Below are positions 12,462-14,675 of a stretch of DNA of 64,000 nt, piece by piece. Within the stretch, counting starts at the first letter, position 1. Each line of letters opens with the position of its first letter. The notes beneath the pieces were generated by a model. That model was not told the DNA's origin, searched no databases, and saw only the letters and a list, made by a program, of their open reading frames with translations. This DNA is from Bdellovibrio sp. (GTDB taxonomy: Bacteria; Bdellovibrionota; Bdellovibrionia; Bdellovibrionales; Bdellovibrionaceae): contig JAKFCY010000002.1 of the NCBI GenBank assembly GCA_036676395.1, positions 1,056,001 through 1,120,000 of the forward strand, read 5' to 3'. Made by a program: the position numbers and the translations under genes.

Positions 12462-13313
12462 ATGAAAAAAGCCGTACTGTTTAAAGCCCTGCAAAGACAT
12501 TTAGGATTCCGTAATCCGGATTCTATCTTACAAATCACACCTGAAATTATAAATAAGCTGGCGCCGCAAGAATTGATCTTGAGTGAGCGTTATTTGCTGA
12601 GTCTAAAAGACAAAGGCATTCAGTTTACTTATCCGGGCGATGCGCTTTATCCCGCAAGTTTTTATCAAATGTTAGAGCCACCATTATTTTTAGAGTACGT
12701 CGGTGAGCCCGTGTGGATGCATAAACAAATTCTGGCCATTGTCGGCGCGCGAAAAATTCATCCGTTTACAGATCGTTGGCTGCGCTTTGAGATTCCACTG
12801 TTTTTAGAAGCTAGGCCTGATATAGCCATTGCCAGCGGTGGCGCTGTTGGCGTTGATCAGTGTGCGCATACTGTGGCGATTAAATCAGATCGGCCGACGA
12901 TTGTGGTCTTGCCGTGCGGGTTAGAGAATTTGTTTCCGAAAAATTTAAATACATTGAAGAAATTAGTTTTGCAAACGGGTGGATGTTTTTTATCTGAATT
13001 CGAGAGTGAACAAAGTGTGCGTAAACATCTTTTCTTTTTTCGAAATCGTTTAATTACCGCGTTAGCGCAAGTCACGATGGTGGCGCAGGCTGAAAAAAAG
13101 AGTGGAAGTTTTCTTACAGTTCATCACGCACTTCAAAATGGACGCACGATGGTAACTCTTCCTGCGCATCCGATGATGTTTGAATTTTCTGGAAACCAAC
13201 ATTTAATGCGTGAAGGGTGTTTCTATGTGCTTACAAACAAGGATTTGCTTAATTTTTGGGAGGCTGAATGTTGGTCTGGTCGGGGTTTGACACTAGATAT
13301 AGACCGCATTTAG
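12462..13313 (+). CDS. dprA: DNA-processing protein DprA/Smf
   Basis: YP..F....PPLFL, AIVGAR, SGGAVGVD, FRNRLI, KSGS. Confidence 0.92.
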   Translation: MKKAVLFKALQRHLGFRNPDSILQITPEIINKLAPQELILSERYLLSLKDKGIQFTYPGDALYPASFYQMLEPPLFLEYVGEPVWMHKQILAIVGARKIHPFTDRWLRFEIPLFLEARPDIAIASGGAVGVDQCAHTVAIKSDRPTIVVLPCGLENLFPKNLNTLKKLVLQTGGCFLSEFESEQSVRKHLFFFRNRLITALAQVTMVAQAEKKSGSFLTVHHALQNGRTMVTLPAHPMMFEFSGNQHLMREGCFYVLTNKDLLNFWEAECWSGRGLTLDIDRI

Positions 13314-13404
13314 TTAAATTGCTTGACCCCTGCCACTAGGTCTAGTGAAGGCAGTGACTAAGGTCAATATTCTTCAGAAAAGTGAAATAATCTAAAAAAA
13401 CCTA

Positions 13405-13434
13405 TTGAGAAAAAAAGAAAGATGCATCTAAAAT
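13405..13434 (+). promoter_or_regulatory. Putative sigma70 promoter of the downstream sRNA
   Basis: TTGAGA-N18-TAAAAT ending 6 nt before the structured RNA at 13441. Confidence 0.55.
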
Positions 13435-13440
13435 AATAAT

Positions 13441-13555
13441 AAGGGAGGGGCGATGTGGTCATGGATGACCCTGGTTGTATGGATGCAGCTACATCGTTCC
13501 GTTTTTCTTAAATTTAAAAATTACAAAGACGAAGTCACTCTTCGTCTTTTTTTTT
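13441..13555 (+). ncRNA. TwoAYGGAY-like / CsrA(RsmA)-binding small RNA candidate
   Basis: Closing stem GGGGCGATGT/ACATCGTTCC encloses two hairpins, each with an ATGGAT loop (13461-66, 13479-84); followed by an intrinsic terminator. Confidence 0.72.
13525..13555 (+). terminator. Intrinsic terminator
   Basis: AAAGACGAAG-TCACT-CTTCGTCTTT followed by a T run. Confidence 0.85.
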
Positions 13556-13577
13556 GTCTTTTTTCTATTCGGGATTC

Positions 13578-14675
13578 TTACGATAATTTTTTGTGAATTT
13601 GGTTAGCCGATACGACAGCGAAAATAAAATTCGCCACCCATGGGCCCATGTAAGGTGGAAGTCTTTGGCTGCGTGATAAGCCTTCGAAGGCAATGTAAAC
13701 AATAAAGTACCCGACGATAAAAGCCACCGACACCACAAAGCCGGATGACTTGCCAGAACGGCGATCGTTGATGACTCCGTAACCAACGCCGACTAACCCG
13801 AAAATCAAGCAGGCAGCGGCTAAGGCGAATCTTTTGTGAAACTCAACAGCGAAGCCGACCTTTTCATTATCTTTGAGTGTGGCGTCGTTTAAGCGCTCTT
13901 GTAACTCGTTATAGTTTAATGAGGGCGGAGATTTTTTACGTTCTTCAAATTTAACCGGATCGTTTAATAAAACATCGTAAGAATCAAATTCAACGACAGT
14001 GTGAGCCTGGCCGCGACGATGAATCTGGCCTTTGAATAAACGCAACAACACGCTGTGACCTGGGTTGTCTAAATCAGGAATGATATGACCTTGCGGTGCG
14101 ATGATGGTTAAGGGCGAACTTGGATTTTTATCATCGTAAATAAATAAATCCTGAAGTAGGCCTTCTTCTGAATTCACTTTATTGGCGTAAATCACCATAT
14201 CAAAAAAGCCTTCTGAAAAAGTGCCCTCTTTGATGCTGGCAGCGGCTTTGGTGTTGCCAAGGTGAGTGATTAATAATTCGAATTGGCGATTTCCCCATGG
14301 GGCAACATAGAATGCAGTTTGCGCTGAGAGAACACTGATCACCAAAGCAAAGGCTACGGCCGGAGCCAGAATTGTGCCCCCGTGATAGCCAGCGCCTTTA
14401 AGGGCGATGATTTCAGAATCAAGAGATGCGCGGTTGTATGTCATCAGAATCGCAAACAGCAGCGACATCGGTAAGATCATCGGTAAGAATGAAATGCTCA
14501 TATAACCCATGATGTCTAAAATAAATGAAAATTTAATTCCATGAACTAAGACGAATTCAGTTAGACGAAGGGCTTGAAACATCAACAAGATCGAAATAAA
14601 TACCAACACACCCAGAATAAAGGTGGGAACCATTTCAGAGAGTAAATAAAAAAATACGCGGCGTGATTTCCACAT
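13578..14675 (-). CDS. lptF: LPS export ABC permease, LptF/LptG family (LptF-like)
   Basis: 3 TM + beta-rich periplasmic domain + 3 TM; LPMSLL, DSEIIAL, EFHKRFAL motifs. Confidence 0.85.
   Translation of the reverse strand: MWKSRRVFFYLLSEMVPTFILGVLVFISILLMFQALRLTEFVLVHGIKFSFILDIMGYMSISFLPMILPMSLLFAILMTYNRASLDSEIIALKGAGYHGGTILAPAVAFALVISVLSAQTAFYVAPWGNRQFELLITHLGNTKAAASIKEGTFSEGFFDMVIYANKVNSEEGLLQDLFIYDDKNPSSPLTIIAPQGHIIPDLDNPGHSVLLRLFKGQIHRRGQAHTVVEFDSYDVLLNDPVKFEERKKSPPSLNYNELQERLNDATLKDNEKVGFAVEFHKRFALAAACLIFGLVGVGYGVINDRRSGKSSGFVVSVAFIVGYFIVYIAFEGLSRSQRLPPYMGPWVANFIFAVVSANQIHKKLS

Follow-up and report, generated by a model that had tools for sequence, protein, structure and literature searches.

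Proteins of the CsrA type bind GGA-bearing hairpin loops as dimers (ANGGAN in the RsmE structures, as summarized in a section of PMC7652899), and each half of a CsrA dimer holds one motif (as stated in an excerpt of PMC4333381). Two kinds of antagonist are discussed for them: small RNAs such as CsrB/CsrC and RsmX/Y/Z, and the protein FliW, whose binding in B. subtilis requires CsrA residue N55 (according to the accessible part of 10.1101/2020.07.02.184341). A 2015 survey reports that FliW and sRNA modules are anti-correlated and assigns the delta-proteobacteria to FliW (excerpted text of PMC4682653), and a 2026 Geobacter paper, in its accessible sections, still calls FliW species sRNA-less for CsrA (PMC13407953). 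A 2020 review, in its available portion, states that joint action of FliW and an sRNA on CsrA remains to be determined in any species (PMC7652899). The nearest described RNA motif by shape is TwoAYGGAY: two hairpins on a common basal stem with GGA in both loops, put forward as a CsrA binder and unvalidated (excerpt of PMC4333381). It is listed for gut samples, gamma-proteobacteria and Clostridiales (partial text of PMC2864571), and in Pseudomonas it is multi-copy and mobile-like, the available part of that report making no mention of Bdellovibrio (10.64898/2026.09.22.753630). In Bdellovibrio itself, CsrA of B. bacteriovorus represses a leader with a GGA hairpin when placed in B. subtilis (PMC13443453). 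The literature and motif surveys searched, which mostly did not cover subscription papers, held no description of a Csr sRNA in Bdellovibrio or of the RNA reported here, and the literature searched held no demonstration of FliW and an RNA antagonist paired on CsrA.

The window analysed here is a stretch of 64,000 nt from a Bdellovibrio genome (3.4 Mb, 99% complete; G000 below). Between its dprA and lptF genes, at about 13441-13506 of the + strand, lies a conserved element, the core of a probable small-RNA gene. An earlier sequence-only reading had drawn attention to this gap; what it overlooked, and what gives the case its interest, is that the CsrA of this organism is of the FliW type. The features are as follows, in window positions:

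12462-13313, + strand: ORF of dprA/smf, the upstream neighbour (PF02481, E 6.7e-49).
13378-13400, + strand: A-rich block with TGAAA, 5′ of the -35 box, in the consensus of 82 distinct upstream regions (alignment A1); likely a UP element or regulator site.
13405-13434, + strand: sigma70-like promoter TTGAGA-18-TAAAAT, kept in relatives, which would start the RNA at 13441-13442.
13441-13506, + strand: predicted small RNA of about 65 nt, a three-way junction (fold, covariation, covariance models R1 and R2).
13442-13447, + strand: AGGGAG in the 5′ leader, seen in the sequence and possibly a third GGA site; family f6 is without it.
13447-13500, + strand: basal stem P1, 13447-56 with 13491-500; its core GGGCGRTG/CRTCGYY is invariant except for wobble changes.
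13457-13470, + strand: hairpin P2, ATGGAT loop at 13461-66 (fold and covariation).
13473-13490, + strand: hairpin P3, ATGGAT loop at 13479-84 (fold and covariation).
13502-13506, + strand: U-run directly 3′ of P1; likely the RNA 3′ end, with P1 as terminator stem.
13525-13556, both strands: two-way terminator-like hairpin confined to close relatives; it probably terminates lptF and may be a backup for the RNA.
13453-13596, + strand: 47-codon ORF with its start inside P1, judged not a conserved gene.
13578-14675, - strand: ORF of lptF/yjgP, the convergent downstream neighbour (PF03739, E 4.9e-81).

The earlier description of a three-way junction, with a basal stem, two hairpins and ATGGAT loops, is borne out at these positions, and so is its choice of the + strand: the predicted folding energy of the 66-nt core (13441-13506) is -24.8 kcal/mol (z -2.96) for the + strand, compared with -13.2 (z -1.31) for the - strand, and all one-sided changes in P1 exchange G-C with G-U, A-U with G-U, or U-A with U-G. 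AYGGAY words are numerous in the genome (n = 3,936); three pairs of them form neighbouring hairpins and, by eye, a basal stem encloses this pair only. Relatives keep the fold. In an 84-row sequence alignment 99.0% of cells are paired and there are 19 double changes, values that 0 of 500 shuffles and none of the slid registers reach. A wider, model-fitted alignment (66 distinct rows) has double changes in 4 of 4 P2 pairs and 6 of 6 P3 pairs, with 147 such cells against 47.7 in shuffles. P1 behaves differently: its 8 core pairs have no double change over 65 sequences, only wobble changes. (Alignment A3 leaves out L065, whose core is identical to that of the window.)

The promoter-like site that had been pointed out is present, and although taken alone it is near chance (2 against 1.5 expected in 1 kb), it is conserved across homologs: 110 of 131 distinct homologs have a TTG...TAnnnT site at a suitable distance, compared with 6% of shuffles. 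At the other end, 126 of 131 distinct cores have a U-run just after P1, with 5 or more T in 8. The strong terminator that had been proposed exists in the window as a hairpin at 13525-49 with a T tail, but it does not hold as a family feature: by script, a second terminator lies 8-90 nt downstream in 2 of 112 homologs (a similar one was seen by eye in L023). We infer a transcript about 65 nt long, from a start near 13441 to the U-run, P1 being a terminator stem whose loop is branched. The length of 115 nt once suggested fails as a family norm, since P1 and the U-run usually end the element; in the window genome an RNA of that length would arise by read-through to 13555. Contigs from RNA libraries (8 of 22 runs, other strains) run past both predicted ends, and such contigs show no ends, strand or level.

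How widespread is the element? BLAST of the region gave strong matches in 22 of 24 same-genus genomes, and a pattern scan of genome contigs gave at least 119 loci, at least 116 of them the full element (L102, L114 and L144, chance matches of the full-element pattern, were dropped). Almost all of the full-element loci listed bear the title Bdellovibrio, Pseudobdellovibrio or one of their families; they include named B. bacteriovorus strains (L062, L063, L088) and a few with other taxon labels but the same neighbours. Two such contigs, labelled Streptomyces griseus (L068) and Bacillota (L145), carry the element beside a Bdellovibrio-like lptF and are probably misbinned or mislabelled. Among the 116 matches listed, dprA upstream and lptF downstream are both present at 81 and one of the two at 31; two contigs are too short, and at two loci the element is inverted. 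A first covariance model found the element in 92 of 151 Bdellovibrionales genomes. The second model drew on 70 hits, some of them distant, and scored 95 of 151 genomes as strong matches (E of 4e-6 or below), most of these 95 having contributed to the model. By family the strong matches fall in f1 (31 of 32 genomes, including that of the window), f2 (24 of 26), f4 (2 of 2), f6 (25 of 31) and f12 (13 of 30), with none in f3, f5, f7-f11 or f13. The window genome has one strong copy and nearly all relatives have one per genome. Outside the order, 122 genomes of the phylum gave no match better than E 0.0013, and a search near lptF in five genomes without a match found no element. Weak matches in G032, G075 and G061 proved to be plain hairpins without GGA loops and were rejected. 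The neighbours differ in f2, f6 and f12, a same-strand histidine phosphatase gene being frequent in f2 and f12 (73 of 113 flanking ORFs scanned). One homolog, L190 (G111), is a longer version of the RNA, with a 61-nt interior and extra GGA motifs. The element is a real, undescribed, order-wide RNA family that is missing from Rfam.

Comparison with known families gave likenesses in parts and membership in none. At gathering and E-value thresholds, Rfam models matched the window and 12 homolog loci only with terminator-like chance hits; in particular, the TwoAYGGAY, CsrB and RsmY-type models that had been suggested as a check gave no family match, the Csr/Rsm models being without a match in the window and in the 12 loci. 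RF01731 (gathering threshold 43 bits) had no match in the window, in 13300-13620 at E up to 10, or in the rest of the genome, and none at the element in five relatives or in the 12 homolog loci; 14 control genomes were also without a match, so that this comparison has no positive control. The TwoAYGGAY label does not survive for a further reason: AYGGAY stands in both loops in only 6 of 131 distinct cores, the window among them, while the loops are mostly AAGGA and in general ANGGAN with N mostly A. The shared topology aside, the element is about 65 nt against 168 model positions, belongs to a different phylum, and is single copy with its own promoter and U-run, whereas the Pseudomonadota form occurs in tens of copies, as doublets and with flanking repeats. 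With CsrB/CsrC and RsmX/Y/Z it shares GGA hairpin loops, a stand-alone gene and a predicted competitive binding to CsrA (on the accessible accounts in PMC7652899 and PMC4682653), but it has two loops plus one 5′ GGA where those RNAs have many sites, its fold is branched and closed, with the basal stem directly next to the U-run, and it coexists with FliW and an N55-type CsrA. Bacillaceae-1 (RF01690) likewise has, on its reverse strand, two predicted CsrA-motif hairpins outside the Gammaproteobacteria (excerpt of PMC4333381), but it belongs to another phylum and its model does not match the element. On these sequence comparisons the element would have a decoy-like function and the TwoAYGGAY topology and is a member of neither Rfam family, the RF01731 comparison being one without a positive control. 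Two other identities were tried and rejected: a Y RNA (no TROVE gene in the genome; control positive in 2 of 14) and a tRNA or tmRNA (ARAGORN found 0 in the window, and a tRNA origin of P1 is not supported).

The loops are the part of the element that points to CsrA. Across the family they read A(N)GGA(N), the CsrA site, with N taking all four bases and A most often. The full-element scan pattern leaves loop 2 free, and all 78 distinct cores so found carry GGA there. A non-circular test used a genome-wide pattern made of P1 and the U-run only, with the f6-type 5′ end; it returned 52 loci, 50 of them titled Bdellovibrionales or its families, with 47 distinct interiors, of which L300 and L328 were chance and were left out (n = 45). 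A(N)GGA is present in the second arm in 45 of 45 and in both arms in 37 of 45, compared with 4% for shuffles, and loop 1 is without GGA in 8 of 45. Fifteen viral matches to P1 alone (12 distinct) were considered as homologs and rejected: 0 of 12 have A(N)GGA in both arms. Losses do occur. In 6 of 21 f2 genomes and at least 6 of 13 f12 genomes, leaving out the cut locus L205, GGA has gone from loop 2, which reads AGAAU or the like; the CsrA of these genomes is ordinary, and AGAAU-type loops recur in separate families. One genome, G159, keeps the promoter, stems and U-run with neither GGA. Loop counts by constrained folding and by half-sequence misjudge some rows, in which GGA falls in a stem arm (G159, G143, G161) or the element is mis-parsed (L204), and the losses given here rest on separate counts and reading by eye. 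Loss of the loops in relatives had been named as what would speak against the RNA, and covariation as a check; the loops are kept, and P2 and P3 covary.

Absence of csrA had been named in the same way, and csrA was found, in a flgL-csrA-fliW block of the window's genome. Its product keeps R44 and N55, and the closest chain is 5dmb_D, from a FliW-CsrA complex (5dmb, in the accessible part of 10.1101/2020.07.02.184341). With its loops conserved, its stems covarying and csrA in the genome, the stand-alone structured RNA gene with CsrA-type loops that had been proposed is upheld. The block, N55 and GGA hairpins in a flagellin leader recall the CsrA-FliW-flagellin switch of B. subtilis, C. jejuni and Geobacter (on partial texts of 10.1101/2020.07.02.184341, PMC13407953 and PMC7652899), a switch whose species are, by contrast, described as without CsrA-antagonist sRNAs (accessible sections of PMC13407953). 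The leader in question precedes the flagellin gene at C3:31937 (- strand) of G000: it has three ANGGAU motifs ahead of the SD, two of them in hairpins of at least 4 pairs, and ranks first in a crude CsrA-target list drawn from 2,990 crude gene calls; in the genome's six further flagellin leaders ANGGAU motifs are fewer or absent. The C3:31937 leader is predicted to be a textbook CsrA target.

Among the 151 Bdellovibrionales genomes csrA is present in 140 and fliW in 130, and among the 95 with a strong RNA match csrA is present in 93 and both genes in 85. The two exceptions, G057 and G148, have the RNA and flagellins and lack csrA, fliW and an flgL ortholog; because that ortholog is absent although flagellins are present, assembly gaps are the likely cause. 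Conversely, 47 of the 140 csrA genomes have no strong match, so CsrA systems can do without the RNA, and the co-occurrence does not discriminate, since the nine genomes with neither csrA nor RNA are mostly in groups that lack the RNA anyway. Five genomes, all f6, are without flagellin, and 5 of 5 keep csrA and the RNA. In 4 of these 5, fliW is absent and CsrA is without the N55 segment and changed at residue 43, and in 3 of these 4 at least one loop is without GGA (G101 is ambiguous). The pattern fits a flagella-independent partner of CsrA, and it also fits an RNA with a second, CsrA-independent duty. The four are the small genomes of L277-L280 (G101, G105, G117, G159), in which csrA is relocated and adjoins genes that we take, from their resemblance, to be prmA and rsmE.

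The best reading of the element is a minimal CsrA decoy RNA that acts beside FliW, to which we give a probability of roughly 60%. A sigma70-like promoter of its own would yield an RNA of about 65 bases ending at the U-run, the junction would hold two A(N)GGA loops side by side for one CsrA dimer, and the RNA's competitors for CsrA would be the flagellin leader and other mRNAs. FliW would report filament assembly, and the RNA would be a separate, flagellum-independent, sigma70-driven input to CsrA. The covarying structure, the conserved loops, the promoter-like site, the single copy, the presence of csrA and fliW and a flagellin leader with the same loops all favour a decoy; neighbours that vary between families, the inverted orientation at 2 of the 116 loci listed and retention in flagellin-less genomes favour a stand-alone gene. 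Against a decoy stand the losses of GGA from one loop, G159 with neither and the csrA genomes without the RNA. The fixed sequence of P1 also counts against a plain decoy, which needs no set stem sequence, and with two or three sites, far fewer than CsrB-type RNAs have, high abundance would be needed for the RNA to have an effect. As a small, single-copy candidate found across the order and in B. bacteriovorus, where CsrA is active (PMC13443453), the element makes the question of FliW plus an sRNA testable; it is possibly also a control point of the predator's switch between attack and growth.

The alternative that survives best keeps the binding to CsrA and changes its purpose: the RNA would not be mainly a sink but a scaffold or guide, P1 recruiting a second factor (a nuclease or other protein) or pairing with RNA. 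The invariance of P1 and the persistence of the RNA with one or no GGA loop suggest as much, and a 2026 preprint reportedly describes an sRNA that guides CsrA to targets in E. coli (10.64898/2026.08.12.744399). But P1 is fully paired, complements of its strands are not enriched near 2,990 crude start regions (12 vs 16.2 expected; 4 vs 16.2), and a Ro60/TROVE gene is absent; we regard this as possible but unlikely. Slightly more doubtful is a combination of both ideas, in which CsrA would have two antagonists at once (FliW and a 65-nt RNA) and the invariant P1 would dock a second factor, making a CsrA ribonucleoprotein of a new kind, which in reduced lineages would persist after the loss of flagella and even of the GGA loops.

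If CsrA is taken out altogether, the GGA loops of a structured RNA could serve another protein or protect the RNA, leaving CsrA-controlled translation unaffected. G159 without both GGA motifs, the recurrence of AGAAU-type loops and a distribution that does not track csrA loss would all agree with this. The loops, however, are a CsrA site with free N, like those of the flagellin leader in the same genome, and at least one GGA loop is present in 45 of 45 in the P1 and U-run set, so that we consider such a role rather improbable. Less probable again is a cis element, that is, a CsrA-responsive terminator or leader for a neighbour (the dprA 3′ end or a downstream gene). Its position is fixed in f1 (both neighbours at 81 of the 116 loci listed), it often lies upstream of the same-strand histidine-phosphatase gene in f2 and f12, and the RNA-library contigs extend beyond both predicted ends; yet the downstream gene is convergent in the window, a promoter-like site accompanies the element everywhere, its neighbours change between families and two loci are inverted.

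That the locus has no ORF, as had been stated, is incorrect: an SD-like GGGAGG and the ATG at 13453 open a frame of 47 codons, and a start codon in P1 (ATG in 124 of 131 cores, GTG in 7 of 131) stands behind a G-rich, SD-like run in relatives too. A small-protein mRNA, for instance for a leader peptide or a type I toxin, is nevertheless very improbable: the homologous ORFs range from 1 to 83 codons, their interior is off-frame in 39 of 131, the peptides are unrelated between families, and the start codon is buried in P1, where the A-to-G change also keeps a G-U pair. Least probable of all, a TwoAYGGAY-like dispersed mobile repeat with no dedicated role would explain the common topology and the change of locus between families, with TwoAYGGAY elements that look mobile in Pseudomonas as a precedent (in the accessible part of 10.64898/2026.09.22.753630), but it is largely refuted by one strong match per genome and stable synteny in f1, and the conserved promoter and the lack of an RF01731 match also speak against it.

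For B. bacteriovorus HD100 some comparison with published transcripts is possible. The strain's APsRNA1-7 and merRNA are, like the element, intergenic sRNAs of the same order (available text of PMC3627812). In supplement rows of that paper lptF is Bd2471 and smf is Bd2472; 0 of the 8 attack-phase sRNAs fall in the gap between them (2,374,931-2,375,102), and the element is not in the gene-linked TSS table. Its sRNA list, as available, is restricted to RNAs enriched in attack phase, all of at least 98 nt. The hit-locus sRNA of another paper (PMC3818213) lies elsewhere, and the intergenic-transcript lists of that paper may include the element.

Several other sites were seen along the way. In the window, 13323-13370 forms an imperfect hairpin 3′ of dprA; the relatives viewed also have its palindromic core (CACTAG..CTAGTG type). 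Elsewhere in G000, the two genes at C2:334737-336424 that we take, from sequence motifs and gene order, to be flgI and flgJ directly adjoin each other, so that no spacer for an APsRNA1-type RNA exists there. Two further GGA hairpins, with AGGAA and AAGGAU loops, lie at C2:880440-880520 on the - strand, where two + strand genes leave a short gap; the pair runs into the end of the upstream gene and is possibly a terminator, or else a further RNA that binds CsrA. Three GGA hairpin-like motifs at C2:1337690-1337770 (+) occupy a 500-nt gap upstream of a gene for 335 aa. Finally, the leaders at C3:524090 (+) and C2:283070 (-) each have a GGA hairpin over the SD and are possible non-flagellar CsrA targets; from their first residues, we take the proteins to be a Lon-like protease and a DivIVA-type protein, respectively.
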